IMG/VR virus record: IMGVR_UViG_3300030012_001663
Location: 31,397-95,396 of that record
Length of the DNA: 64,000 bases
Direction: 5' to 3' (one strand)
From: a virus
The position numbers were made by a program, and so were the translations under genes. The notes beneath the pieces were generated by a model, which had not been told where the DNA came from, made no database searches, and saw only the letters and a program-made list of their open reading frames with translations. The first letter of the stretch is position 1. The number at the start of each line of letters is the position of its first letter. Shown piece after piece: positions 1,332 through 52,064 of the stretch.

Positions 1332-1787
1332 TTACTTCTTAATAGTTTGAAACTTTTCAAATCCACGTGATCCAAAATAAGCCACGTAAATAGTAACAAG
1401 GAGTGTCTTGAGTAATTCTACCCAACTCTCATCTATATCAAAAGCAATATCAAGTGAGTCTAATACAATATAAAGAGATGTAATAACAGTAAGATATATT
1501 AGTGTCATTGGTCTAGTATTCTTACTTAACCAAGAATCAGATTTCATATCTGAGTCCCAACGCTTGCTTACTTCTTGCATCTCAATCATATCAAGCTCTA
1601 AAAGCTTCATTGCTTTTTCTTTATCTTCTGGTGTTAGTGAGGGCTCATTATCAATTAAACCTTTTACTACACCTAATACACCTGCGTCAGGTAAAACATC
1701 TCCAACTACACCTAATATACTAGGTACTTTATCAGTTAGAAACTTACCAACCTTGGTATCTTTAAATTTTTTCTTAGGTTTTGACAT
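1332..1787 (-). CDS. Holin, GTA_holin_3TM-like
   Basis: SDSWLSKNTRP followed by two hydrophobic helices and a terminal YFGSRGFEK motif typical of this family. Confidence 0.75.
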   Translation of the reverse strand: MSKPKKKFKDTKVGKFLTDKVPSILGVVGDVLPDAGVLGVVKGLIDNEPSLTPEDKEKAMKLLELDMIEMQEVSKRWDSDMKSDSWLSKNTRPMTLIYLTVITSLYIVLDSLDIAFDIDESWVELLKTLLVTIYVAYFGSRGFEKFQTIKK

Positions 1788-1984
1788 TATTTCTTTTTTC
1801 CTCTATAACCTCCACCGGCTGCTTTATATGCTTTTGCAAGCATTTGAGCTTTACGTGCTGACCACTGACCTGGTCTTCCACCTTTGCTACCCGCTTTGAT
1901 TCTATTAAACAATCTTTTACGCATTGTAGGCTTTGTATAATTACCTGATGCGTTTACTGTACTTTTTTTCTTTTTTGCTGGCAT
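1787..1984 (-). CDS. Small basic protein, similar to the N-terminal half of DUF5872-like proteins
   Basis: Start at ATG 1984 (MPAKKKK), 65 aa. Motif YTKP...KGGRPGQWSARKAQMLAKAYKAAGGGY. Confidence 0.75.
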   Translation of the reverse strand: MPAKKKKSTVNASGNYTKPTMRKRLFNRIKAGSKGGRPGQWSARKAQMLAKAYKAAGGGYRGKKK

Positions 1985-2003
1985 AATTATTCTTTTATAA
2001 CAT

Positions 2004-2237
2004 TTACTTGCTATGTCTCTTCTGTACTTTAAAGTTAGCAACTAAGGATGCTCCCTTGTGAGGTACAAACTTTCCAGAGTGCTTCATAAGTCTAAAACCA
2101 GATCCACTTTTCATCCAATGGAATCCTGCTGGAGCTTTTACCCCTTTAGTTCCAGTTGAACCACCTTTTTTATAGTTTACAACGCTTTTAGGCATTGTTC
2201 CTTTTTTCTTTGCTGCTTTTATTTTTTTTGCTGGCAT
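2004..2237 (-). CDS. Small basic hypothetical protein
   Basis: 77 aa, K-rich. Motifs YKKGG and VKAPAGFHWMK. Packed tightly in the operon. Confidence 0.7.
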   Translation of the reverse strand: MPAKKIKAAKKKGTMPKSVVNYKKGGSTGTKGVKAPAGFHWMKSGSGFRLMKHSGKFVPHKGASLVANFKVQKRHSK

Positions 2238-2247
2238 ATCTATAATT

Positions 2248-2853
2248 TTATATTGCTTCTGTTCCTAGTGTTCCATCATTAGCTACAGTCAATTTATATA
2301 CTGTACCGTTTGGTGATGATAACCTAACTTCAGTTGCAGGTCCTATTGTAATTTGATGCGTATTGTTTGAAACAGTTACGCCATCTCCCTTTAATGATTT
2401 AAATTGTAAAGTCTCTCCACTCTTTTGAGCAAACACTCCTGAGCCATCACCAACTGATTGACCCCATAGGTTTTCACCAGTATTAGGCTCACCTAAAGTG
2501 TTAATCTCTAAGAAGTCTCCGTTCTCAGCTACACTAAGATTCAGAGATAAAGACTTTAACTTTCTCAAATTTACTGTACAGTCTTCTGTCTCAGGATCAA
2601 TTACTGTATCTTTATAGACACCTGCTGTACTAGTAAGGTTTCCTGTTGGTACATTTACAAATGTGCATACATCTGCAGGTACCTTTAAATCAGAAACCTT
2701 TATAAGCTTAACTGACTTATATGGAATAGGAGAAGCAACACCGGTCATATCAGGCTTCTCATGTATACCAATAGGTATAACATCATTAGACTTAGCCTTC
2801 TTAATCAGCTTACCTCTCTTTAATAAACTTAATACGTCAGTAAGAATATTCAT
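2248..2853 (-). CDS. Putative virion fibre/decoration protein, 201 aa
   Basis: Likely start ATG 2853 (MNILTDVLSLL), 1 nt after the upstream stop. Contains N-x-G-x-G-x-GVF...L-x-FKSL fibre-like repeats and a C-terminal LSSPNGTVYKLTVANDGTL motif. Confidence 0.65.
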   Translation of the reverse strand: MNILTDVLSLLKRGKLIKKAKSNDVIPIGIHEKPDMTGVASPIPYKSVKLIKVSDLKVPADVCTFVNVPTGNLTSTAGVYKDTVIDPETEDCTVNLRKLKSLSLNLSVAENGDFLEINTLGEPNTGENLWGQSVGDGSGVFAQKSGETLQFKSLKGDGVTVSNNTHQITIGPATEVRLSSPNGTVYKLTVANDGTLGTEAI

Positions 2854-2854
2854 T

Positions 2855-3106
2855 TTATTTCTTTTTAGATGCTGTCCATCCACCCATTTTATATGCCTGC
2901 ATTCTCTTCTTAGAACCACCGTCACCGTAAACATATCTTTTTGTCTCAGATCCGTTTCTCATTTTTTGTTCCATGTTGTCAGCCATATCCATAGATGCAC
3001 CACCATAAGTCATCTTATTTAAAAGAGACTCACCACCGTTTTTCTTATAGCCCATTGCTTTTAGTTTATTAAACAAAGCTTGAGCGCCTTTCTTTTTTTC
3101 AGCCAT
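2855..3106 (-). CDS. Small basic protein built of xxxGG repeats
   Basis: Start MAEKKK at 3106. Contains KKNGG, MTYGG, MRNGS, YGDGG, YKMGG. Confidence 0.7.
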   Translation of the reverse strand: MAEKKKGAQALFNKLKAMGYKKNGGESLLNKMTYGGASMDMADNMEQKMRNGSETKRYVYGDGGSKKRMQAYKMGGWTASKKK

Positions 3107-3107
3107 T

Positions 3108-3254
3108 TTATTCAATATTTAATGTTAATGTACATACTAATAAAAACAACCTTGCGGTTGTAAATGCATGCTTCTCATCAGGAAGAAAAAACTCCCATCC
3201 TAGAGCACACCTTTCATGAGGCCAATGAAAGGCTATTTCTAAATCCCAATTCAT
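3108..3254 (-). CDS. 48-aa beta-rich hydrophobic peptide (not in ORF track)
   Basis: MNWDLEIAFHWPHERCALGWEFFLPDEKHAFTTARLFLLVCTLTLNIE*. ATGA overlap with the upstream gene; fills the gap exactly. Confidence 0.65.
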   Translation of the reverse strand: MNWDLEIAFHWPHERCALGWEFFLPDEKHAFTTARLFLLVCTLTLNIE

Positions 3255-3385
3255 CTTCCTTGACCTCTATATTTCTTTTTGTAGTTCTTACTAAGCTTAT
3301 TAACTGATGTCTTTGTCTTAGCATGAACTCCTGGTCTCTTTTTCTTAGCGGGCTTAACGTAAGCTTTTAGTACTAATCTAGCCAT
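3251..3385 (-). CDS. 44-aa basic peptide ending YRGQGR (not in ORF track)
   Basis: MARLVLKAYVKPAKKKRPGVHAKTKTSVNKLSKNYKKKYRGQGR*. Overlaps neighbours on both sides (TAATG, ATGA). Confidence 0.75.
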   Translation of the reverse strand: MARLVLKAYVKPAKKKRPGVHAKTKTSVNKLSKNYKKKYRGQGR

Positions 3386-3633
3386 TACTTTTTCTTTCTT
3401 GGTCTACCTCTACGTTTTTTACCCTTAGCAGCATCTACTACATCACCAGCTTGATCAGCTACTTCTGAGATAGCATCTGCTACATCTTTCATTTCTTCTT
3501 TAACCCTCTTCACTCTTTGCTTAGTTGCTTTTACAACAGCAGTGGCTCTCTCATCAACTGTAGTCTTTGACCAGACCCAGTCCCATGCACTCTTTACAGA
3601 GGATTTAATTTGGTTTAATACTTTTTTAAACAT
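3385..3633 (-). CDS. Small helical protein with C-terminal AT-hook
   Basis: Amphipathic helices; ends KKRRGRPRKKK (RGRP core). Confidence 0.7.
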   Translation of the reverse strand: MFKKVLNQIKSSVKSAWDWVWSKTTVDERATAVVKATKQRVKRVKEEMKDVADAISEVADQAGDVVDAAKGKKRRGRPRKKK

Positions 3634-3656
3634 TTTGTTTTATTTTGGTTATATAC

Positions 3657-3668
3657 TAAATATACAAA
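3657..3668 (-). promoter_or_regulatory. Phage promoter-like motif, variant TTTGTATATTTA
   Basis: Intergenic, upstream of the ATG at 3633, same orientation as the gene. Near-match to the repeated 12-mer. Confidence 0.5.
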
Positions 3669-3688
3669 AATTCAATCTTTTATCCAAT

Positions 3689-4003
3689 TTATACATTTTT
3701 AAGTCTATCATTCTCTTTTTCTAAGAACTCAACTTTTACAGTTAACTCGCCAACTTCCTTTGTTAAGCTAAGTATCTGTGCTCTCATAAGATCTTTTTCT
3801 TCTGAGCTGTCTTGTAATAATTTTTCAAGTCGTTTGACTCTTTCTCTAAGATCGTCTCTGTACATGTTTTGATCATTAATTTCTCTTTCTTCTGCCCTTG
3901 CTTTGTTGCTGATGTATCTTTCGTAAAATCTCCAAGCGCCAGCTGAAAACAAAACACCTATGAGTGTTACTACTACTGTCGTAATATTATCTAAGTTCTG
4001 CAT
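3689..4003 (-). CDS. Membrane-anchored coiled-coil protein, possibly lysis-associated
   Basis: N-terminal TM (TVVVTLIGVLFSAGAW) followed by a long heptad coiled coil. Confidence 0.65.
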   Translation of the reverse strand: MQNLDNITTVVVTLIGVLFSAGAWRFYERYISNKARAEEREINDQNMYRDDLRERVKRLEKLLQDSSEEKDLMRAQILSLTKEVGELTVKVEFLEKENDRLKNV

Positions 4004-4367
4004 TGTTCTTCTTTCTATAGTAATGTTTAGTAATCTGATATAATATTATACCTGACATCATTATAGTAGTTAACCATATCCAGGCAAAAGGATTAATCAT
4101 AACACCTGAAAGACACAAGTAGATGTTTACAAAAACTGAAAATATGAAGGAGCCATAAGCTAAAGATTTTCTAACTCTTAAGTTATGAATGCATGTGGAT
4201 TTGATAAGGGCAAGTCCTAGAAGAATACTAGGTACAACTAAATAAAGTTTAAACCCTAAAGATAAAGTAGAAATCATTGGGAATAGGATAGCCCAAATAA
4301 ACCCCAAAATAAGTTCAAGGGGTTCAGAATCATAATAGGTAAAAATATTTACTACTTTTTTAATCAT
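3987..4367 (-). CDS. Four-TM integral membrane protein
   Basis: Four hydrophobic segments and a basic C-terminus; overlaps the downstream gene. Confidence 0.65.
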   Translation of the reverse strand: MIKKVVNIFTYYDSEPLELILGFIWAILFPMISTLSLGFKLYLVVPSILLGLALIKSTCIHNLRVRKSLAYGSFIFSVFVNIYLCLSGVMINPFAWIWLTTIMMSGIILYQITKHYYRKKNNAELR

Positions 4368-4420: not shown

Positions 4421-4432
4421 ATAATATACAAA
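4421..4432 (-). promoter_or_regulatory. Phage promoter-like motif TTTGTATATTAT
   Basis: Exact 12-mer in the divergent intergenic region, upstream of the ATG at 4367. Confidence 0.55.
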
Positions 4433-7413: not shown

Positions 7414-7449
7414 AAGAACCGGTTAGAAATGGCCGGTTCTTTTTTGTTT
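7414..7449 (+). terminator. Rho-independent terminator of nrdBA
   Basis: AAGAACCGGTTA-GAAA-TGGCCGGTTCTT followed by TTTTGTTT. Confidence 0.88.
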
Positions 7450-7461
7450 ACACATATTTAA

Positions 7462-7473
7462 TTTGTATATTAT
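7462..7473 (+). promoter_or_regulatory. Phage promoter-like motif TTTGTATATTAT for the envelope cassette
   Basis: Exact 12-mer just after the nrdA terminator and 42 nt before the ATG at 7516. Confidence 0.6.
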
Positions 7474-7515
7474 AGTATAAACCAACTCAAGATTATTAAC
7501 ATAAAAATAGTAATT

Positions 7516-7890
7516 ATGAGTTTTCTTAAAGATAAAGAACTAAGAGGATACCTTGGTGCAGCCACTGTATTCTTATTAGTAATGGGTCTTCTACTCTTCT
7601 TAGCATTTTTTGAAATACCTGATACAAACAATGATATATTCAAAGTTATTGTAGGTATGCTTGTTGGCTCACTATCTGTTGTTATCTATACTTTTATAGG
7701 TAAAAACCCAGAAGAAGTTGAGTCACTTAAAGCTAAGAATGAAGCATTAGAAGATAAAGTCAGTCAGATGGTGATAGAAAAAGATAAATTAGAGCTTTTA
7801 CTCAGAGACCTACAAACAGAGGTTATTGATAAGCTATCTCTTACAGGAGAGCATTTTGCCTTTTCATCACTTGAAGAAGATGAAGAATAG
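7516..7890 (+). CDS. Two-TM membrane protein with C-terminal coiled coil
   Basis: Two hydrophobic helices joined by an IPDTNND loop, then heptad repeats. Holin-like topology. Confidence 0.7.
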   Translation: MSFLKDKELRGYLGAATVFLLVMGLLLFLAFFEIPDTNNDIFKVIVGMLVGSLSVVIYTFIGKNPEEVESLKAKNEALEDKVSQMVIEKDKLELLLRDLQTEVIDKLSLTGEHFAFSSLEEDEE

Positions 7891-8272
7891 AATAAAACTT
7901 TTTACACTTGTATTTGTATTATGCAATATTATGCATGCACAGCAAATACCTGAAGATAAAAAATTACACTTTGCTGCTGGTAGTATTATAGGTGCAGCAG
8001 GTTATGTCTGGTCTTATCAAAAACATCAAGATAAAACTAGAGCAATGATAACAGGAATATGTTTAGCATTTGCAGCAGGTGTAACAAAAGAAATGTATGA
8101 CGGACAGATAAAAGGTGGGTACGTAGAACTAGGTGATATAGCCGCAACAACATTAGGAGGAATAACATGGAGTGTTACAATACCACTGTTTCAAGAAAAA
8201 AGAAAATATTATAAATTTAAACCTGATAGGAAAAAAAGAAAGCCCAAATCTAAAAGAAAGTGTGGCAGATAA
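7880..8272 (+). CDS. YfiM/DUF2279-like membrane protein
   Basis: Likely start MKNRIKLF at 7880. Signal-like N-terminus; DKKLHF...KEMYD...DIAATTLG motif; basic tail. Confidence 0.65.
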   Translation: MKNRIKLFTLVFVLCNIMHAQQIPEDKKLHFAAGSIIGAAGYVWSYQKHQDKTRAMITGICLAFAAGVTKEMYDGQIKGGYVELGDIAATTLGGITWSVTIPLFQEKRKYYKFKPDRKKRKPKSKRKCGR

Positions 8273-8288
8273 AATTAAATTAAATAAC

Positions 8289-9509
8289 ATGAAACAACTA
8301 CTTACAATTATACTAGCATTATTCTTTGTTACAGATTCTAATGCTCAATTCTTTAAAGAGTTATATAAAGACTTTTTAAAGTATGGAACCGTCTATGCTG
8401 CTGGTGATTATAGATCAGCATATGAGACATCAGATAAAAAATATTTAATTAGAACACCAGACGGTGCTGGTATATATGATGTACCTGAAGTAGTAGATGT
8501 AACGGAATACTTCCCTGCAGACTACAGATATGGTTTTGGTATCCGTAAACTTGCACGTTTTGACTATGAAAGAAAGCCAGGAAACTTTTGGACTGGAGAT
8601 CAAAATAGAGAGAGACAAAACGGATTGCTTGCACCTACCTCTGCTATAAAAGGATTTGAATATCTATTCCACTGGGAGAAAGAGAGACGCAGAGGAGAAG
8701 AATGGGACAATGAAAGATTCTTCATTAGACATACAGGTAAATATCATATTGTAAAGCTTGAGCAAAGATACCAAGGTGCATATGATTTTAACTATCAGTC
8801 TGCTGATGTAAGAGCTAGAATACCTATTGGTAAAAAGTTTGCTTTATCTTTAGGTGCTGCATATAGAACACATGAAAGAGTATATGGTGTAAACCCTTAT
8901 GAGATCTGGGTTAGCGCTTTAAATGATGATGGTTCACAAGCTAACTACTGGTATGAGCTTGCCTATGAGTATGGTTATCAGGATGCTTTCTATGCTACTA
9001 CTATTGTAAATCCACAAACCGGAGAAGAAGAAGAAATATTTGGATACTTCTGGTGGGATCCTCAAGGAAATAGAATTGCATCATCTGATTTACAATTCAG
9101 AGATGGTCCATATAAAAGATTAATATCAAAATATAATAGAGATATATTAGGAGAAACTTCACAGTTTGGTTTGGTTAGTCCTGTAGTGGGATTTGACTTT
9201 TATCATTATGATAGCAAGTTTTGGATTCACTTATATGGTACAGCATACTTACCTTATCACAAGTATGTCAAAGGAGATAAAGATGACTATGGTAGAGTAC
9301 CTTTATCTTATCTATTCAGAAACAGTTGGGATCAGTATGGTCTAGCTGATGCAGCAAAAGGAGAGCAATGGTGGGATTATCAAGGTGGTGCTAATATTGG
9401 AATCAAAATTGGTAAGTCAATAGGAATCTTTGCTGACGCAGAATATACTAGAATGTGGGATTCAGAGTTTTTTATAACATCATTTGGAATAAATTATACA
9501 TTTAGATAA
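8289..9509 (+). CDS. Putative outer-membrane beta-barrel protein
   Basis: Start MKQLLTIILALFFVTDSNAQ (SPI signal, cleavage before Q). Aromatic/Gly alternating strands; C-terminal FFITSFGINYTFR beta-signal-like strand. Confidence 0.7.
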   Translation: MKQLLTIILALFFVTDSNAQFFKELYKDFLKYGTVYAAGDYRSAYETSDKKYLIRTPDGAGIYDVPEVVDVTEYFPADYRYGFGIRKLARFDYERKPGNFWTGDQNRERQNGLLAPTSAIKGFEYLFHWEKERRRGEEWDNERFFIRHTGKYHIVKLEQRYQGAYDFNYQSADVRARIPIGKKFALSLGAAYRTHERVYGVNPYEIWVSALNDDGSQANYWYELAYEYGYQDAFYATTIVNPQTGEEEEIFGYFWWDPQGNRIASSDLQFRDGPYKRLISKYNRDILGETSQFGLVSPVVGFDFYHYDSKFWIHLYGTAYLPYHKYVKGDKDDYGRVPLSYLFRNSWDQYGLADAAKGEQWWDYQGGANIGIKIGKSIGIFADAEYTRMWDSEFFITSFGINYTFR

Positions 9510-9790
9510 TGGCAAAGCAATTAGGAGAAGATACTAAGGTTACACTTGATCTTAAAACATTAGGAATGATTGGTGCTGGGATAGCGTCACTAGTGGGTAT
9601 GTGGTTTGCTCTGCAATCAGATATTCAAGAAGCTAAAGAACTACCAGCTCCTGTTATTGATAGAATTGAATATGACCTTAAAGATGAGTTAGTGCGTCAA
9701 ACTATAATGGACACACAAGATGACGTTGATGATATCAAAGATAAACTAGATAAGATAGATCAACGTTTGTATGAACTACAACAAAGGTAG
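9509..9790 (+). CDS. Single-TM protein with acidic coiled coil
   Basis: TM LGMIGAGIASLVGMWFAL, then DVDDIKDKLDKIDQRLYEL. TAATG-coupled to the barrel gene. Confidence 0.75.
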   Translation: MAKQLGEDTKVTLDLKTLGMIGAGIASLVGMWFALQSDIQEAKELPAPVIDRIEYDLKDELVRQTIMDTQDDVDDIKDKLDKIDQRLYELQQR

Positions 9791-9792
9791 AT

Positions 9793-10191
9793 ATGAAAAA
9801 CATTATAACTTTACTACTATTACTACTACCGTTTATTTCTTTTTCACAAGAGTGGGTTGATGATCAATCAATTGATAAAGTATTAAACTCAAAGAGTGCT
9901 TTTGGTGATGATGAGTCTAAGATAATAGTTATAGAATTTTGGGCTAAGTTTAATGAAGCAAATGCTTTTAGTGACTGGTCTAAAATTAATGAAGATTATT
10001 ACAGAGTAGATATTGGTAAAGCACCTAGTGCAAAAAAGAAATATAGAGTAAGAATGGCCCCTACCATAATTATATTTAAAGATGGAGTGGCTGAGGAAAG
10101 CTTCAAGGCAGGTCTAGATTTAGAATGTCCTGTAAGCTTGGAAGAATTGCAAGAAGCAATTAAAGAGGTTAAAACCGCGGGAGCATTTTAA
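9793..10191 (+). CDS. Exported thioredoxin-fold protein lacking CxxC
   Basis: Signal peptide. IIVIEFWAKFN replaces VDFWAxWC; YRVDI and MAPTIIIFKDG (cis-Pro strand) retained. Confidence 0.75.
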   Translation: MKNIITLLLLLLPFISFSQEWVDDQSIDKVLNSKSAFGDDESKIIVIEFWAKFNEANAFSDWSKINEDYYRVDIGKAPSAKKKYRVRMAPTIIIFKDGVAEESFKAGLDLECPVSLEELQEAIKEVKTAGAF

Positions 10192-10200
10192 ATTAAAAAA

Positions 10201-10734
10201 ATGAAAAAATTATTACTAATATTATTGTGTTTCTTTGTTTTTACAAGTTGTGAAAAAGAAGAAATATTACCTTCAATTGAAATGAGTTTAGATGGACAAT
10301 CATTTGATCCTTATGATAGATACGCACAAATCAAAACATTTGCTGGTAAAAAAAATGAAGCTGATACAGTAAAGAAAATCTTTATTCTTTATCTACAAGT
10401 AGATGATGGAGAACCAAGATTAGATAGACAACACTTTGCTTTATACTGTTTGGATTCAGATGCAAATGATGATAACAAACTATTAGACTTAGGTAATTAC
10501 ACTTGGGAAAACCCAGATAATAAGTTTGCTGGTGTTGAGATACCTGGTGATCAAGAGTATGTTGTTTGGAATAGCGTGGATGTTTTAAGTGTGAGCAACG
10601 GTATTTCTTTGCAGGCACAAGGAGAGTTTTTTAATCCTTATGTTCAAAGGAATATGACTGTTGACTTAAGACTAGAAAATTGGCCAATAGGTTTAGATGT
10701 AGATGCTACTCCTTATGGGTACTTGCTAGACTAG
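10201..10734 (+). CDS. Lipoprotein, possibly surface-exposed
   Basis: MKKLLLILLCFFVFTS-C lipobox followed by EKEE, resembling the Bacteroidota K(D/E)2 export signal. Confidence 0.75.
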   Translation: MKKLLLILLCFFVFTSCEKEEILPSIEMSLDGQSFDPYDRYAQIKTFAGKKNEADTVKKIFILYLQVDDGEPRLDRQHFALYCLDSDANDDNKLLDLGNYTWENPDNKFAGVEIPGDQEYVVWNSVDVLSVSNGISLQAQGEFFNPYVQRNMTVDLRLENWPIGLDVDATPYGYLLD

Positions 10735-35561: not shown

Positions 35562-36812
35562 CTATAAAATTTCTATATCAGCACCTGATGCTAATAGTCT
35601 TGTTAAAGTTTTATCATCAACCTCTACCTCACCACCGTCTTTTCCATAAGCTGTTGTAACGCTCATATCTGGTTGCATAAGTCCTGTGTTTGCATCATAC
35701 AAACCTCTTTTACCTTCAGGATCTTCATATACACCAAAAGCATTATCAGCCATAGTAAGTTCTCTCAATTCTTTTTTTGCCTCTATAGCTTTCTTGTCAA
35801 GGAAGTAATCATTTATAATACCAGCTCCTTGAACAGCTAATTGGCTAAGTTCACCATATCCTTCCATAAATCTACTATCCATTAGTCTATTTATACCACC
35901 CTGAATATTGTTTGTTCTTTTAACTTCAGGGGCATCATATGGTGTTACAACAACTTCATCTAACTCTATTGTACCTTCAGGTACTTCAAACTCATCATTA
36001 CTTGCAGATCTTTGTTGTCGTGGAGGTATAATACTTTGAGTATCTCTCATATAATCTGTTTGAGCTTGTCCTTGTATATATTCTCCAAAATCATCTGTAA
36101 ATGGATTAAAGCCTTGTGGACCACCTAATTGTGCTTTAGGTGTAATCTTAGATAATAAACTCATCTTATCTTCAGGACACTTATAACCCTTTACGTAAGG
36201 TAATAAGCCATTGTAATTTTCACCACCTTTTTTAAATGGTAACTTAACACCACTAAATGCTTTAGTAACTGTATCTACAATTTCTTCTTGATTCATACCC
36301 TCTCTGTATAACTTCATCTCTTCATCTGACAGTATGTTAGAATCAGATTCTCTAGATGCTAAAAAAATTCTATTTCTACCATCTTTATCTACATTGTATT
36401 TAGTAAACTTATCTATATCTTCTAAATACTGATCATCAGTTCTAATAGGTGTCATATTATTAGCACTCTTTGATGCATTAAATAACTCTACAGCATCTGA
36501 CTGTGCAAAGTTGTAATCATTTGGATCATTCTCATCTATGTTTACATCATAGTTATAGTACTGACCAGCTTTTCTTTTTTGGATGGCTCTTTTTCTCTTA
36601 CCATCTCTAAAGAAACCATCCTTCAACCCATCACCATCTTTGTCCTTGCCACTAAATAAACCAGCAACATTACTAGCAAAGTTAGCTACATCACCAATAT
36701 TAAAATTACCTACCTCTAAACCTATGTTCAAAGGTATATATCTTGGCCTTGCTCTATAGCCGCCATCCTGATAATCTTTTAAACTTTTTTTATGTAACTT
36801 ACTCCTACTCAT
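35562..36812 (-). CDS. Putative internal virion protein
   Basis: 416 aa. YQDGG, FKKGGE, AQLGG, GKDGGE motifs; DKDGDG Ca-loop-like motif. Confidence 0.55.
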   Translation of the reverse strand: MSRSKLHKKSLKDYQDGGYRARPRYIPLNIGLEVGNFNIGDVANFASNVAGLFSGKDKDGDGLKDGFFRDGKRKRAIQKRKAGQYYNYDVNIDENDPNDYNFAQSDAVELFNASKSANNMTPIRTDDQYLEDIDKFTKYNVDKDGRNRIFLASRESDSNILSDEEMKLYREGMNQEEIVDTVTKAFSGVKLPFKKGGENYNGLLPYVKGYKCPEDKMSLLSKITPKAQLGGPQGFNPFTDDFGEYIQGQAQTDYMRDTQSIIPPRQQRSASNDEFEVPEGTIELDEVVVTPYDAPEVKRTNNIQGGINRLMDSRFMEGYGELSQLAVQGAGIINDYFLDKKAIEAKKELRELTMADNAFGVYEDPEGKRGLYDANTGLMQPDMSVTTAYGKDGGEVEVDDKTLTRLLASGADIEIL

Positions 36813-36856: not shown

Positions 36857-39622
36857 TTAACTAGTTACTATGTTTGTCATAATGTAATTGGCTGGAGACA
36901 TTCCAGCTTCTTTTGCCTCTTTATAATATACTCTATTAAGTCTGTCAAACACTTTTTCTGCTTCAGGGTAACTTTCTGATGTGTCAAATTCACCCATAAT
37001 AAAATCTTTGTAAATCTTAAACATATTAGATTCACCTCCTGCTTGATATAAATCTACTATAGGTGTATAATCTTTTGATTCTAATGCTTGCTTATATTGA
37101 ATATTGAACTCAGGATTCTTACCTAATATTTTTTCTATATAGTCCTTAGACTCTGGATTTATACCATTTAACCAATCAAGAGAATTATAAATATCATATT
37201 TTCCTTTTAATTTAGTAAGATTTTTAAGTGCTCCTGATGGACCTCTATTGTAAGCATACAAAGCTTTTGCTAGTTGTACTTCATCTGTACCTTTTGCAAC
37301 AAACGGTTTACTTTGTATATACTTCATATAAGCTTTTTGTGCTTCAACAGCTTGTTGTGGGTTAAAAATATCAAAGTCTTCATTTACAAAACCTAATCTT
37401 TGTAGTTCCTTTATAGTAGTAGGTGTAAATTGTGTTAGACCTTGTGCACCAGCTGGTGACTCTGCGCTAGGATTAAAAGAAGATTCTGCAAAAGCTTGTC
37501 TTCTTAACATATCATTTTGTTTTTCAATTATCTCTGCACCGTATTGACGTCTTCTTCTTTTTTTATTAGTTGTTTGAGGTATAATAACACGGGTATTAAG
37601 TGGCTCAGCTTGTATCTCATTAGGCACATTGAGATTTATTGTTTCTCCTTTTAGAGTAGATAGTGGTACAATCTCTTCTTTTGGAGCTTGCATGTATAAC
37701 TCTTTAAGATCATCTATTTGTTTTTGTATCTTAGGAGTTTGACCTACATATCTATAAAACTCATGTTGTTCTGAAAAGTCATCTCTATCATCTCCTGATT
37801 CTATATTAGGTCCTAATTCAAATTCATCTTTACCAAAATATAATCTACTACCACCTTGTGCATTATATACTTCTATGTATGGAGTACCATCATCATATTC
37901 TGCTTTTTTATTTAATATAGTAGTATGATGTGGTCTAAACACTCGTGGTGCATCAGACATAGTATATTCTAATGGAGCACTATTATATTGTATAGCTATA
38001 TCACCTGGCTCTGCATCTTCTACTGATACTTTTTCAAAAGGTACATTACCTGCTGTTTTATATCCAGAACCATAAGCTCCTTCTGTAAAAGTATAATTAC
38101 CACCTATAATGTCTACATCAGTTGCTCCTGCTTTTTGATATGGGAAACAACCAAAGGGTGTACAATACAATTCCCTACTAGGATCTTGTCCGCCTTTCCA
38201 TGTATCATCTTTATATGAATAAGATGCTACATTGTATTTACCTTGTTGTGGTAGTACATCTTTTACTTCTTGTGGCAAAGCTTCTCTTGCTGCTGCAAGT
38301 TCTTTAGGATTATTTGCATATGTATAATTTTCCCAAAGTTCTACAAGTTTCTGATCTTCTTTTGTTATAGGGTTATTTATTCTGTCAGCTATTTTACTAT
38401 CAGCTATATCTATCTCTTCACTAACTTGAGGTACTCTAGATCTTATATCATTAACTCTATTTTGCTCTTCTTCTAATTGCTTATAGAGCTGTAACATTTG
38501 TTCTCTTATTTGAGTTCTTGTTTGTTGTTCGCCACCTTCTTGCTCTTTAGGTAAATAATATCTATCATAAAACTCATAAGGTTTTATTACATTATTTAAT
38601 GCTCCTTTGAAATCATACTTATCATATATAGATATATACTTTTGTTTTTTATCTTCATCATATCCTACACTTACTTTAAAGTTTTGTAGAGGATCAATTT
38701 GTTCAAACTCTGTTTCATCCATAAATCCTTTCTTAAGAAATGGAGCAAGAGATTCAAAATATTGTACATGATCTACATCTTTACTACTAAGTTCTTTCAT
38801 TATCTTACTGTAGTCAATAACATCATCATGCAACTTGTAATATTTAGCATCTGGATCTTCTGCACTTGAAGGCTTGTATTGTTCTTGAGGAATAATATAT
38901 TTATCCTTTGTAGACACACCTAAAGACTTAGCCCAAGCTTCATCACCTATTTGATAATCTCCATCACTATCCAAAGCAGGTGGTGTAGTAGTATCAAAAC
39001 CAGCTTTCTTAAGTAATAAATTAGTAGCTGTAGTTGTCATTGTAGTAAATGTTGGATAACTTAAAGGTCTGACGTTGTCAAATATAAACTGTCTGTCTTC
39101 TTGTGTTATCTCAGGTTTTACCATATTATATATATCATCAGTTTTTTCTGTAATAAAATCTGATGTTGCATCTGCAGCAGCTGCTAATTTTTTTAGTAAT
39201 GGAAAAGCAATTTTGTCATCAAGATCATTTCCACCTCTTTGTTTTATAGGTAGTTCTAAACCATCCTCTGCTTTTTCACAACTACCTTTACTGTACGCCA
39301 TCTTACCTGACACAGGTTTATATCCTGGCCAACACCTGCCCCCATCTGCCATCATAGGTAGTTCTACAACCATATCACCAGGAAATGTGTATTGTGCACC
39401 TGGCATCATTACTTGAGAATTACCTAAGTTATCAGTTCCTAATATAGGAAACTCAACATCTTTCATACTAATATTACTTGAGGGAATGACATTAAATGTA
39501 TTATCCTTGTCAGGACTATTAATCTTATATCCCTCAACAGAAATTGCACCAGTAATCTCTGTGATCTCCTCATTAGGTCCACCTGGTAATCCTCTTGATA
39601 TTGTCTTTTTAAACTTCTTCAT
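36857..39622 (-). CDS. Virion-associated peptidoglycan hydrolase (SLT domain plus putative CHAP/NlpC-P60-like domain)
   Basis: AESSFNPSAESPAGAQGLTQF...AYNRG...ESKDYIEKI (SLT motifs). YCT...EPGDIAI...HHTTI (Cys-His hydrolase-like). Confidence 0.8.
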   Translation of the reverse strand: MKKFKKTISRGLPGGPNEEITEITGAISVEGYKINSPDKDNTFNVIPSSNISMKDVEFPILGTDNLGNSQVMMPGAQYTFPGDMVVELPMMADGGRCWPGYKPVSGKMAYSKGSCEKAEDGLELPIKQRGGNDLDDKIAFPLLKKLAAAADATSDFITEKTDDIYNMVKPEITQEDRQFIFDNVRPLSYPTFTTMTTTATNLLLKKAGFDTTTPPALDSDGDYQIGDEAWAKSLGVSTKDKYIIPQEQYKPSSAEDPDAKYYKLHDDVIDYSKIMKELSSKDVDHVQYFESLAPFLKKGFMDETEFEQIDPLQNFKVSVGYDEDKKQKYISIYDKYDFKGALNNVIKPYEFYDRYYLPKEQEGGEQQTRTQIREQMLQLYKQLEEEQNRVNDIRSRVPQVSEEIDIADSKIADRINNPITKEDQKLVELWENYTYANNPKELAAAREALPQEVKDVLPQQGKYNVASYSYKDDTWKGGQDPSRELYCTPFGCFPYQKAGATDVDIIGGNYTFTEGAYGSGYKTAGNVPFEKVSVEDAEPGDIAIQYNSAPLEYTMSDAPRVFRPHHTTILNKKAEYDDGTPYIEVYNAQGGSRLYFGKDEFELGPNIESGDDRDDFSEQHEFYRYVGQTPKIQKQIDDLKELYMQAPKEEIVPLSTLKGETINLNVPNEIQAEPLNTRVIIPQTTNKKRRRRQYGAEIIEKQNDMLRRQAFAESSFNPSAESPAGAQGLTQFTPTTIKELQRLGFVNEDFDIFNPQQAVEAQKAYMKYIQSKPFVAKGTDEVQLAKALYAYNRGPSGALKNLTKLKGKYDIYNSLDWLNGINPESKDYIEKILGKNPEFNIQYKQALESKDYTPIVDLYQAGGESNMFKIYKDFIMGEFDTSESYPEAEKVFDRLNRVYYKEAKEAGMSPANYIMTNIVTS

Positions 39623-47902: not shown

Positions 47903-49129
47903 TTATATTGCTTGATAGGTTAATTCACATATATTACCCATAGTTGGATGTTGAAGTTCTAGTTTACCAGACCTTCTATTACCTGTATACTTGTTATGAT
48001 AATGGTAATAATCTGTCTTACATAAGCTGGGTAATGTCTTATGTATAAATCCACTATTTTCAGAAGTTGTTATATACTCTACCTTTCTTTCTTGATGAAA
48101 GTGTCCTGTGTATAAAGTACGGTTTCTAGTAGTACCCCACTCTTTTGCAAACTCACTTGCATATATAAGTGGTGTATTCTTAGAAGGTTTATCACCATGC
48201 TCAAATGCATTAAAGTTATCATTCCAAACATGCACTTTTCTTTCTAAATATTCTATGTCCCAGCTTATCTTATCTGAGTCAATAGATTTAGATAGAGCAT
48301 GTGCCAAATGAAAAGATGATAACCTATCATGATTACCTGGTATATACACTACAGCTAACTCATTACAAAATGCTTTAAGATAGTTTATAGCCCAGTGCAT
48401 TGCATCAAAAGCTTGAATATAAGAATCTGTAGCTGTAGCACAGTTATCTAAAGGTGTCCCGCTTGTAGTTGAGCCACTAAAGGTATCCATATTAATAAGA
48501 TCTCCCCCTACTATAAAATATAACTTTTCTATATAGTGAGTGGCTGTACCTCTAGATATAAGATTTCTTATAGTATCCTCAAAGTCTTTATCTATAGTCT
48601 CATTACCCTCTTTACCAAAATGAATATCCTGTAATGATATAATACCACAAACTTTTTCTTTATCCTTTTTTAGTTTTGGTATATCTGCTTTTGGTACATA
48701 AAACTTTTTAGGTCTCCAGTTCTTTAGTAACTCTTCAAATAGTTGATCTTGTGGATCTTTTACTTTAGTTACTAAAGCAGATACTCTCCAATGGTCACCC
48801 ATTTGTTTGTTCCAATACTGAGAAAGCTTCCATTGCTTGGTGTCAATCTTTAATAGTTTTACTATTTCTTCAGCTGACTTTGGTTCAAAATCAAAGGTAC
48901 CTGATAATTTACCTGTACCTTTTTCTAAATCAATTGATTCAACAAGCTGTGCATTATCTGCAGCTTTATTAAAGAATTTAGTTTTACTTCTATCTTGCTT
49001 CCTTTCTTTTAAAACTTCTTTCTTTAATCTTTTATATTCTTTTAATGATATTCCTAACTTCTCTGAAACATATTCCGGACTCTTTTTCCATTTCAATGTT
49101 TCTCTTACTTGACTTTTTATAAATGACAT
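47903..49129 (-). CDS. Calcineurin-like metallophosphoesterase (Mre11/SbcD-like fold) with N-terminal HTH-like region
   Basis: Motifs DIH, GD, GNHD, HGD, GHFH all present. Confidence 0.85.
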   Translation of the reverse strand: MSFIKSQVRETLKWKKSPEYVSEKLGISLKEYKRLKKEVLKERKQDRSKTKFFNKAADNAQLVESIDLEKGTGKLSGTFDFEPKSAEEIVKLLKIDTKQWKLSQYWNKQMGDHWRVSALVTKVKDPQDQLFEELLKNWRPKKFYVPKADIPKLKKDKEKVCGIISLQDIHFGKEGNETIDKDFEDTIRNLISRGTATHYIEKLYFIVGGDLINMDTFSGSTTSGTPLDNCATATDSYIQAFDAMHWAINYLKAFCNELAVVYIPGNHDRLSSFHLAHALSKSIDSDKISWDIEYLERKVHVWNDNFNAFEHGDKPSKNTPLIYASEFAKEWGTTRNRTLYTGHFHQERKVEYITTSENSGFIHKTLPSLCKTDYYHYHNKYTGNRRSGKLELQHPTMGNICELTYQAI

Positions 49130-49817: not shown

Positions 49818-52064
49818 TTAAGGGTTTGAGCAACTTGCAATTAGTACACTATCTATTACTGAAACATCTGCGCTTACATTAAACGCACCACCAGTTTGAG
49901 TTGCTAACTCTTGCCATGGATAAACTGTTGAACCATTATGATTATAATCTTCCTCAACTCCAGCACCGCATACAATTACTTTAACATTTTGACTATTTGC
50001 TGTTGCAATTAATGATTGAATTGTTGCATAATCAGCTGCTCCAAATGATCCATCATCACCACCAGAAAGATTATCTGTAACTACAACAATATATTTAGCA
50101 ACATTATTTCTAAATGCACCAAATAATGGATTAGTTGCTGCCATTACTAATTCTATTGCTATATCTGTTGGCTCAGCTCCACCAGGTGCTCCACTTCCTA
50201 AGTTTATACAAGATGAAGTGTTTCCTGTGCTACCTCCAGCTAATTTTTGAACTTGTGTATTTGCAGAAGTACCATTATTATTTGAGAACATTTCCCATGC
50301 AGTAATAACCGCTTTTGCATTTGGGCTAGTAAATTCACGTTTTTGAGCTGCTGGTAAACTTATATAATCTGCACAACCTGAATAAGTTGGAGTGCCTGTA
50401 GGTCCATATTCGTCTACAGTTGCAACCCCTACTCTATAGTTATTAGCACCACTTGCTGTATCTATTGAATTAATTAAAGTTGTAAATCCAGATTTAAAGC
50501 TCTGAATAGGACCGTTCATAGAACCAGTGTAATCAACTAAGAATGCTACATCCATACCATCACTACATGGAGGTGCTCCATCTAGAGATGAAAAGTCTAC
50601 ATCTGGACATTGTTTTGTTTGTCCTCCAACTACAATAGTTAGTCTAACTTTGTAATCACTATTAGCACTTAATGCACTAAATGTTTGAGTAACAGAACTA
50701 CCTTGATTAGCTAATATATGTGTTTCTGATGCTGTACTATTTGTTGAACCTGTTGTAGTATTGTGCTCAAATGCTTCAATAGTAAATAGTGCAGATGTTC
50801 CAAAAGTATTAGTAAATGATACATCAAACCCTGAAGTAGTTTCATTACTAGAAGTCAGAGTTGGACATTCTATTACACCTGCCACTGTTTTGTTTATAGA
50901 ACCTTCACAGTTGTTAGTACCATCATTAAAACACCAATTCATTGATACTGATAAATCACCAAATGTATTAAGAGAACTTACTGAAACATTAACACCAGAT
51001 GGATTACTTTGTAATGATGTTACTTGCTCAGTTGCAACTACGCTAACACCATTTACATCTGTAATTGTTATTGTTTGGAATCCTCCACAATCATTAAATG
51101 ATGATGGGATACTAGAACCAACAAAGTTAAGATTTACTTGTGATACATTTCCTGTACCTGAATCAATAACACTTGTTGCAACTAGATCCACTGTGATTGA
51201 ATCACAAGCTCCTGGGCAACAGTTAAGTTGAATATCTTGTATAGCATTATAAAGATCATCTAATACAATCCATTGATTTTGTACAGACTGTGCTAATGTA
51301 GTAGTAGACGTATGCCATCCTGTTTGGCTTCCATAATTAGTTGATGGATTACTTAACAATGTATAATTACTTGTTAAACTTTGCTGTGATATTGCATTGT
51401 TAATTAAAGTAGGAGTACCTGTAGCAGTCTCTAAGGCACAGAACCTTGTCTCTAATGCTAATAATACTACTGATACATTTGTAAGTTGTCCGCCTGGTAC
51501 AACGCACTGAGAAATGATTTGAGCTTCATTTACTGAACCAGAACTACATGGTAATACACAATTCTCTAGTATAGTAATTCTATCTCCTAAACTAGTGAGG
51601 GTATTATTTATAGTAGTAATAGAATCAAGTATGTCACATACTTTGTTTCCTACCAATAAAGCATATTGCTCTAATGGTAATGATGTCACTACAGCTCCTG
51701 TAGCTGGATCATTATACTGTAGATTAGTACATAAGTTTATGTTTGGTAAAGTAGTTGTGCCTCCGCTTCCTCCTGTAGGTAAATCACAAATATAATCTAC
51801 AATAGCCTGTAGATTATCTTTTAATGTAGAAGGTGCAGTCCCTGTAGGTAAAGCACATTTAAGATCAAAGCCTGATAAATCTGGTTCTGATTGTACACCA
51901 GAAATTATATCACATAATTTTTCTGCTAGTTTTGCAACAACTTCACTTACAGTATCACCTGTACATAAGTCTATACAGGCAATGTCTGGGCCTTGCCAAA
52001 TAACGCAATTAGATGAGATATTATTGCACCCATTTGTGTCTGAGCTTGATTGTGTAGGAATCAT
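49818..52064 (-). CDS. Structural fibre/decoration protein (Cys-rich N-domain, coiled coil, FN3-like, C-terminal vWA)
   Basis: CVIWQGPDIAC; ITTINNTLTSLGDRITILE; FSALSANSDYKVRL; DVAFLVDYTGSM...VVVTD...LATQTGG. Confidence 0.7.
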   Translation of the reverse strand: MIPTQSSSDTNGCNNISSNCVIWQGPDIACIDLCTGDTVSEVVAKLAEKLCDIISGVQSEPDLSGFDLKCALPTGTAPSTLKDNLQAIVDYICDLPTGGSGGTTTLPNINLCTNLQYNDPATGAVVTSLPLEQYALLVGNKVCDILDSITTINNTLTSLGDRITILENCVLPCSSGSVNEAQIISQCVVPGGQLTNVSVVLLALETRFCALETATGTPTLINNAISQQSLTSNYTLLSNPSTNYGSQTGWHTSTTTLAQSVQNQWIVLDDLYNAIQDIQLNCCPGACDSITVDLVATSVIDSGTGNVSQVNLNFVGSSIPSSFNDCGGFQTITITDVNGVSVVATEQVTSLQSNPSGVNVSVSSLNTFGDLSVSMNWCFNDGTNNCEGSINKTVAGVIECPTLTSSNETTSGFDVSFTNTFGTSALFTIEAFEHNTTTGSTNSTASETHILANQGSSVTQTFSALSANSDYKVRLTIVVGGQTKQCPDVDFSSLDGAPPCSDGMDVAFLVDYTGSMNGPIQSFKSGFTTLINSIDTASGANNYRVGVATVDEYGPTGTPTYSGCADYISLPAAQKREFTSPNAKAVITAWEMFSNNNGTSANTQVQKLAGGSTGNTSSCINLGSGAPGGAEPTDIAIELVMAATNPLFGAFRNNVAKYIVVVTDNLSGGDDGSFGAADYATIQSLIATANSQNVKVIVCGAGVEEDYNHNGSTVYPWQELATQTGGAFNVSADVSVIDSVLIASCSNP

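Follow-up and report, generated by a model that had tools for sequence, protein, structure and literature searches.

A three-gene phage envelope module with a predicted outer-membrane barrel and a redox-dead thioredoxin fold: a possible role in the outer-membrane step of lysis

Introduction

What use does a phage have for a run of six adjacent genes, each of which encodes a membrane or exported protein? Such a cassette is found at positions 7516–10734 on the plus strand of a 64,000-nucleotide stretch of viral DNA. This stretch, here termed the window, makes up the right-hand 64 kb of the 95-kb IMG/VR record IMGVR_UViG_3300030012_001663, which has a CheckV completeness of 83%. A sequence-only reading of the window had described six tightly spaced plus-strand genes with transmembrane (TM) segments or export signals, and proposed that they form a complex across the cell envelope. 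Three roles were suggested: a spanin-like disruption of the outer membrane, exclusion of further phages or masking of their receptor, and a nutrient pore. The six open reading frames (ORFs), g1–g6 (Table 1), are arranged as described, with successive gaps of −11, 16, −1, 2 and 9 nucleotides (nt), and membrane or export signals are present in all six products.

Comparison with related viral loci narrows the question. The conserved unit is not the six-gene cassette but the three genes g3, g4 and g5, which encode a predicted outer-membrane barrel, a short inner-membrane protein and an exported protein with a thioredoxin fold. Among the roles suggested, the lysis-related one is favoured by linkage of the trio to endolysin and holin genes and by a promoter-like motif of apparently late type. 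The trio may be a mobile, late-expressed and phage-specific module of the envelope whose role is in the outer-membrane step of lysis. A probability of roughly 40% is assigned to this reading, which leads the alternatives weighed below.

A conserved trio in diverse phages

Through g3, 71 viral loci were fetched from IMG/VR and all of their ORFs were clustered; together with the window they make up the 72 loci referred to here. The trio is present in 69 of the 71 related loci and occurs in at least three genome contexts. Its genes always adjoin one another and are ordered either g3-g4-g5 or g4-g5-g3; within the trio g4 and g5 form the tighter pair. Some genomes (L051–L056) have two g4-g5 pairs, and thus g4 and g5 duplicate together. 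Genes g1, g2 and g6 come and go. They are found in 10, 6 and 15 of the 72 loci, respectively, near the trio but in variable positions. The genes do co-occur in other phages, as would be expected of a common system, but regularly so only for g3-g4-g5, the remaining three being accessories.

The g3 family is large. A set of 5.8 billion proteins contains 2141 relatives at E ≤ 0.001, which fall into 353 clusters at 50% identity. The atlas clusters are 97–100% viral, and the family looks virus-only. It occurs in ocean metagenomes, including Tara samples. Among 185,579 bacterial and archaeal species genomes, a search with single-sequence patterns of g3 found nothing, and alignment-based patterns found only contigs of metagenome-assembled genomes (MAGs) with phage gene content. 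This agrees with the sequence-only reading in that the cassette is not an ordinary host operon. The cassette DNA has no match in the 50,697 cultured-phage records of INPHARED.

Three PBPJ01 contigs (L073, L076 and L077), assigned to the MAG 'Candidatus Woesearchaeota archaeon RS366', show the phage trio or the giant-protein context found in the phages, and contigs of a 'Maricaulis sp.' MAG likewise show one or the other. Both sets look like mis-binned phage contigs.

The window trio shares 76–80% identity with copies in phages that are unrelated to the window phage both in their structural genes and in the genes around the trio. Thus, the module moves between phages, as would be expected of a mobile unit of lysis type.

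The g3 protein, a predicted outer-membrane barrel

The g3 protein begins with the signal peptide MKQLLTIILALFFVTDSNAQ. It has no lipobox and no Cys residue. A model made with AlphaFold2 (AF2) from 39 homologues shows about 14 long strands at middling confidence (predicted local distance difference test score, pLDDT, 73). The top 20 VIA matches of the model are all outer-membrane barrels (Z 8.3–11.2), the best of them having 12–14 strands and Z scores of 9–11. Foldseek also returns exclusively outer-membrane barrels, with low TM-scores. The sequence-only reading had taken this 406-amino acid (aa) protein for a barrel, and the AF2 model and its structural matches likewise predict an outer-membrane beta-barrel. 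The C-terminus of the family, ...GINYTFR, follows the beta-signal pattern apart from an extra terminal Arg, which leaves Phe in the penultimate position.

The best VIA matches are EstA, CymA (Z 11.1), Tsx (Z 10.1), NalP, KdgM, LpxR and TamA. Tsx and CymA could suggest a channel; however, autotransporter, LpxR and TamA barrels match equally well, and thus what is shared with g3 is the barrel fold only. No Pfam, PHROG or NCBIfam family was found for g3, and ten divergent full-length members of the family are also without a Pfam family.

The alignment of g3 homologues (mean identity 60%) has 78 invariant columns, and the predicted external loops are highly conserved. The long loop at residues 88–121 is poorly modelled and yet nearly invariant (R90, F91, Y93, E94, K96, G103 and E108). 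It would be periplasmic if both termini of g3 face the periplasm as in other barrels. On account of this near invariance, the loop is a candidate docking site. An enzymatic role of the outer-membrane phospholipase (OMPLA) type was also considered for g3. The HxSNG motif is absent by eye, and all that was found are many invariant His, Glu and Arg residues; this candidate was rejected.

The g4 and g5 proteins

The most conserved member of the core is g4, whose homologues in 69 of the 71 loci are 40–80% identical. The protein has a single N-terminal TM segment (residues 17–35), followed by a charged helical tail of about 57 residues that is predicted to lie in the periplasm. There is no Cys residue, and the tail shows no two-helix hinge. 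A weak match to PHROG 1009 was found. In eight loci there is, in addition to g4, a second paralogue subfamily of 102–110 aa with the inserted motif RVKWPRGEMGALPDDAKQDL (for example L010:3079-3411, L013:2338-2661 and L030:9140-9448).

The g5 gene always follows g4. Its product scores 25.5 bits against the Pfam family Thioredoxin (PF00085), the cut-off being 23.5, and the family profile matches solved thioredoxins in the PDB at E 8e-9. The cis-Pro loop is kept. At the active site, WAKFN stands in place of WCGPC (WCxxC) in all 51 unique homologues, and the one Cys residue present in g5 is not conserved. Thus, g5 would be incapable of thiol-disulfide exchange. A thioredoxin fold without CxxC, as proposed from the sequence at the outset, is therefore found throughout the family. 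Compared with PF00085, g5 is alike in fold, cis-Pro loop and a significant sequence similarity, but differs in the replacement of WCGPC in all homologues and in its export by a signal peptide.

A complex prediction with g3 (residues 21–406), g4 and g5 (residues 20–132), made with alignments, gave a score of 0.00 and is uninformative either way.

Transcription and lysis gene neighbours

The plus strand of the window has, in order, nrdB, nrdA, an intrinsic terminator, the promoter-like motif TTTGTATATTAT and g1–g6. The sequence-only reading had noted both signals, the terminator as insulating the cassette and the motif as one shared with structural and lysis genes, and both observations hold. 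With up to one mismatch the motif occurs 12 times, against 2.65 occurrences expected, and none of 100 shuffles reached 12. Exact copies stand upstream of g1, of a minus-strand operon of small genes that starts at 4367 and ends in the holin gene, and of two minus-strand genes of the virion block that start at 36812 and 52064. Because the cassette has the nrdA terminator before it and a motif of its own, it is a transcription unit separate from nrdBA. Its transcription class is probably late, the timing being suggested by the motif common to the holin operon and the virion block. The virion genes, several of which match virion-structural PHROGs, are on the minus strand and thus run opposite to the cassette, again as first described.

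Endolysins are the commonest neighbours of the trio. In 48 of the 72 loci an endolysin gene is found within 1 kb, and the number rises to 51 for a distance of 2.5 kb. These endolysins are of three unrelated types: Peptidase_M15_3, PG_binding_1 with Amidase_2, and a T7-lysozyme-like Amidase_2. Holins of the PHROG 3427 family are found within 1 kb in 13 loci. Other frequent neighbours are a conserved 82-aa protein with two TM segments and a basic amphipathic protein of 76–82 aa. In phages of ~170 kb, the gene order is amidase, 2-TM protein, g3, g4 and g5. The trio is here in the slot that spanin genes have in lambda-type cassettes (PMC6139136).

Two families of small lipoproteins are also seen near the trio. 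Family 38 consists of mini-lipoproteins of 56–67 aa in the ~170-kb phages, encoded a few genes from the trio, with a GCG lipobox and a C-terminal TM segment (L002:9949-10119, L011:6135-6338 and L018:12482-12670). These have the layout of a unimolecular spanin (u-spanin) but are far shorter than T1 gp11. Family 17 consists of Pro/Tyr/Asn-rich lipoproteins of 120–145 aa without a surface-export signal, which adjoin the trio or the M15 endolysin (L028:3021-3386, L030:10741-11175 and 14 other loci). The family 17 gene is between g3 and g4 in L028, and directly before a g4-like gene in L085. These proteins are possible partners of g4 of the outer-membrane spanin (o-spanin) type.

A possible role in lysis

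Taken together, the late-type motif, the endolysin and holin linkage, the spanin-like topology of g4 and the presence of an outer-membrane partner place the outer-membrane step of lysis first among the roles considered. In the proposed mechanism, g4 would reside in the inner membrane with its helical tail in the periplasm, and g5 would pair with g4 and, as a redox-dead thioredoxin, would serve as a binding domain in the periplasm. The g3 protein would be put into the outer membrane by the host beta-barrel assembly (BAM) machinery. After removal of the wall by holin and endolysin, the trio would weaken or open the outer membrane and let the virions escape, a job that is performed elsewhere by spanins. 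The holin-like g1, the YfiM-like g2 and the surface lipoprotein g6 may be exchangeable accessories of the lysis cluster. Physical contacts within the trio, the timing of expression and the effect on the outer membrane are inferred.

The trio resembles spanins in topology but, judged by the features that define them, is not one. As in the two-component spanins, of which lambda Rz/Rz1 is the example, there is a type II inner-membrane protein whose periplasmic tail is helical, and there is an outer-membrane partner. In addition, holin and endolysin genes are neighbours in most carriers, although not in the window, and the module is mobile and very diverse. The differences lie mainly in the partners. 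The g3 protein is a 406-aa barrel with a Sec signal and not a small lipobox lipoprotein; a third component, of thioredoxin fold, is present; and g4-g5 can occur without g3. The lipoprotein g6 does not fill the place of an o-spanin either: it bears a signal for surface export, and 57 of the 72 loci lack it. The layout of the unimolecular spanin of T1, gp11, with a lipobox and a C-terminal TM domain, is found in none of g1–g6, although proteins so built are seen close to the trio in other loci, such as family 38 and L114.

That an outer-membrane protein might take the place of an o-spanin has been considered before; Kongari et al. (2018; PMC6139136) write that 'an OMP could act as an o-spanin'. 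The same survey found no spanin in ~13% of the genomes examined, including Bacteroides and Croceibacter phages. A search of the literature for a described lysis module with a barrel and a thioredoxin found nothing. Perhaps the trio represents a third class of outer-membrane disruption machinery in marine Bacteroidota phages, beside the spanins and the cationic disruptin-type peptides, in which the barrel replaces the o-spanin and the redox-dead thioredoxin couples it to the short inner-membrane helix protein. This more specific proposal is tentative and should be held with a good deal of doubt.

Several observations weigh against a role in lysis. Some concern the proteins themselves. The periplasmic part of g4 is short and hingeless in comparison with two-component spanins, and both g3 and g4 are without Cys, while intermolecular disulfides are a general spanin feature (PMC6139136). 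Others concern the window phage. Its cassette has no endolysin nearby, and its holin gene lies on the other strand at a distance of 6.5 kb. Neither Peptidase_M15_3 nor Amidase_2 was found in the record, 95 kb in length and 83% complete. A search of the record for DUF5675 also gave no match, but there was none in the control genomes either, and hence it carries no weight. A tblastn search of INPHARED with g3, g4, g1 and a 748-aa protein of the window (49818–52064) gave no match.

The remaining adverse points come from the related loci. Spanin-like lipoproteins, either Pro-rich or with a C-terminal TM segment, occur together with the trio in 27 of the 72 loci. In the ~170-kb phages L002–L008, L018 and L022, genes for two GT2 glycosyltransferases and an NAD-dependent epimerase are ~1–7 kb upstream of g3, and a PAP2 phosphatase gene directly follows g5, with a ClpS-like gene further on; the GT2, epimerase and PAP2 genes on the borders of the trio fit surface remodelling.

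A sample taken independently of the trio is also unfavourable in part. Through the giant protein A5, which precedes g3 in one clade, 78 further loci were fetched so as to avoid selection on g3. Thirty-nine of these had enough downstream sequence to judge, and the counts were confirmed with hidden Markov models. The trio is present in 22 of the 39, including divergent g3 proteins at 30–34% identity. Six have only g4 and g5, two have only g3, near the edge of the locus, and nine have none of the three genes. Three CheckV-complete genomes (65.6–69.4 kb) have g4 and g5, with g3 nowhere. Thus, phages can do without g3, and the set as a whole can be dispensed with or replaced. Clade relatives that lack all three genes encode another endolysin and a small TM protein, and one of them has a protein with a lipobox and a C-terminal TM segment, which is the u-spanin layout. 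An anticorrelation with spanins, suggested by the sequence-only reading as a test, did not emerge: in 37 clade loci a simple lipobox/TM heuristic gave no clear pattern between the trio and spanin-like lipoproteins. As such lipoproteins are found both with and without the trio, an anticorrelation cannot be claimed.

Short divergent g3-like ORFs are found directly after the giant protein gene in two loci (L080:8001-8399 and L081:6376-6579; 131–173 aa, 31–34% identity). These may be truncated or remnant barrels.

Alternative roles

The alternative that survives best, though we consider it unlikely, is remodelling of the cell surface or superinfection exclusion. Here g3 and g6 would alter or mask the cell surface, with g4 and g5 as helpers in assembly or anchoring, such that further phages cannot adsorb or the progeny are spared loss on debris, as with T5 Llp. 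The surface-export signal of Bacteroidota predicted for g6 keeps this option alive for that gene, and yet no more than 15 of the 72 loci have g6. The glycosyltransferase, epimerase and phosphatase genes that flank the trio in the ~170-kb phages are in agreement with it; on the other hand, endolysins and holins are the tightest neighbours. The module is accessory within the clade (22 of 39 loci), as is usual for exclusion genes, and is mobile between unrelated phages. However, g3 shows high conservation in its predicted external loops, unlike a surface protein engaged in an arms race, and the promoter-like motif is common to the holin operon and the virion block and not to nrdBA. No PADLOC family was found above noise for g3–g6.

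Phage-encoded outer-membrane proteins and surface lipoproteins of lysogenic conversion that are made in the infected cell include lambda Lom and Bor and T5 Llp, whose genes are often near lysis or tail genes. These are single genes that are not known to have fixed inner-membrane or periplasmic partners. Lom is an 8-strand barrel of the Ail/Lom type. No sequence or family link between g3 and Lom was found in Pfam or PHROG, and g3 comes from a large conserved family that appears to be virus-only.

Control of lysis timing is a less probable alternative than exclusion. According to this explanation, g4-g5 would be a periplasm-facing sensor or antiholin-like pair, in a position like that of T4 RI, which modulates the holin, and g3 would be an optional input from the outer membrane. 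It accounts for the three complete genomes with g4 and g5 and no g3, and a small, highly conserved g4 with a single TM segment, in a pair located beside holin-like 2-TM genes, would suit such a role. It leaves unexplained, however, why the pair co-occurs so strongly with a large outer-membrane barrel; nothing indicates a signal input, and Pfam, PHROG and NCBIfam gave no link to known antiholins in sequence or family.

A nutrient or nucleoside pore, with g3 as a channel of the Tsx/CymA kind supplying the infected cell, is very improbable: apart from the generic barrel fold of the model, it has in its favour that the cassette follows nrdA in the window and in L073, L025, L028 and L070, but terminator and motif detach the cassette from nrdBA, the neighbours are mostly lysis and not metabolic genes, and g4 and g5 are given no role.

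Accessory genes and other features of the window

Table 1. Positions of the cassette genes and of other features in the window.
Feature	Position	Strand	Properties
Holin	1332..1787	-	PHROG 3427 'holin', E 3.9e-18; 6.5 kb from the cassette
Basic amphipathic protein	3385..3633	-	82 aa; family found in the trio/endolysin cluster of other phages
TM coiled-coil protein	3689..4003	-	104 aa; PHROG 2658 'hol-like'; overlaps the end of the 4-TM gene
4-TM protein	3987..4367	-	126 aa; under the motif at 4421-4432
Intrinsic terminator after nrdA	7414..7441	+	12-bp stem with 5 GC pairs, then a T-run
Promoter-like motif TTTGTATATTAT	7462..7473	+	43 nt before the start codon of g1
g1	7516..7890	+	124 aa; TM segments 13-31 and 44-62; acidic coiled-coil tail; holin-like form
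g2	7880..8272	+	130 aa; exported; Gly-rich hydrophobic segments; strongly basic C-terminus
g3	8289..9509	+	406 aa; Sec-type signal peptide; predicted ~14-strand outer-membrane beta-barrel
g4	9509..9790	+	93 aa; type II inner-membrane protein (predicted); start codon overlaps the g3 stop
g5	9793..10191	+	132 aa; exported (signal peptide); thioredoxin fold; always after g4
g6	10201..10734	+	177 aa; lipoprotein; lipobox FTSC, Cys17
Virion-block protein	36857..39622	-	921 aa; lysozyme/transglycosylase-like domain at ~680-835; PHROG 669/342 'internal virion protein with endolysin domain'
SbcD/Mre11-type DNA repair exonuclease	47903..49129	-	PHROG 704, E 6e-43; amid the virion-structural block

The three accessory proteins differ in how much can be said of them. 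Homologues of g1 that are 85–89% identical are found in 9–10 related loci, at most 2.5 kb from the trio. Its matches are weak: PHROG 9990, Pfam 2TM/leucine-zipper families below the cut-off, and the PADLOC '4TM effector'.

The g2 protein had been called YfiM-like. It does match the NCBIfam model NF008028 'YfiM family lipoprotein' at E 1.3e-10, with 41 bits against a cut-off of 117 bits, and the PHROG 26616 'lipoprotein' at E 4e-7. Its N-terminus, ...FVLC, is not a canonical lipobox, and there is no DUF2279 match in Pfam. The likeness to YfiM is remote. In 5–6 related loci, g2 is located between the trio and the M15 endolysin gene.

The description of g6 as a lipoprotein cleaved by signal peptidase II stands. 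The mature protein starts C17-E-K-E-E-I, and C-[ET]-K-[ED]-E is invariant in nine homologues. The sequence C-X-K-(D/E)2-X is the optimal Flavobacteriaceae-type lipoprotein export signal of Bacteroidota surface lipoproteins (Lauber et al., 2016; PMC5080379). The g6 protein fits this signal after the lipobox Cys, which argues for a Bacteroidota host and for exposure of g6 on the cell surface. It differs from the Bacteroidota surface lipoproteins in that it is phage-encoded, has an uncertain fold and belongs to no known family. The AF2 model has a small all-beta fold (pLDDT 63). Naming of the fold through small beta-barrels of the LpqH, YceI and TbpB types was tried and dropped, the best Z score (6.4) being too weak to use.

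Away from the cassette, the window is mostly one minus-strand block, which includes giant genes for proteins of 4426, 2030, 1913 and 1756 aa. The holin, the 82-aa protein and the TM coiled-coil protein of the window phage are encoded in one minus-strand operon (1332–4367) under TTTGTATATTAT. The TM coiled-coil protein matches TIGR03495 'Rz-like LysB' below the cut-off (E 0.013), and no embedded or adjacent lipoprotein ORF of the Rz1 type was found near the TM-coil genes of the window, which counts in favour of the lysis reading. The 921-aa protein of the virion block is the only peptidoglycan hydrolase recognized in the window. A search with the 416-aa protein at 35562–36812 found no close relatives of the phage.

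Significance

How phages without recognizable spanins pass the outer membrane is an open question, and the trio is a concrete, abundant and genetically testable candidate. The window adds an example of a cassette that stands apart from any endolysin gene, set off by a terminator and a promoter motif of its own. If the trio does act at the outer-membrane step of lysis, this would affect the annotation of lysis genes in marine viromes, the understanding of the release of cell contents from hosts of the Flavobacteria type, and efforts to find proteins that destabilize the outer membrane. If instead it remodels the cell surface, it would represent a phage-encoded complex of the outer membrane that is both widespread and new in composition.

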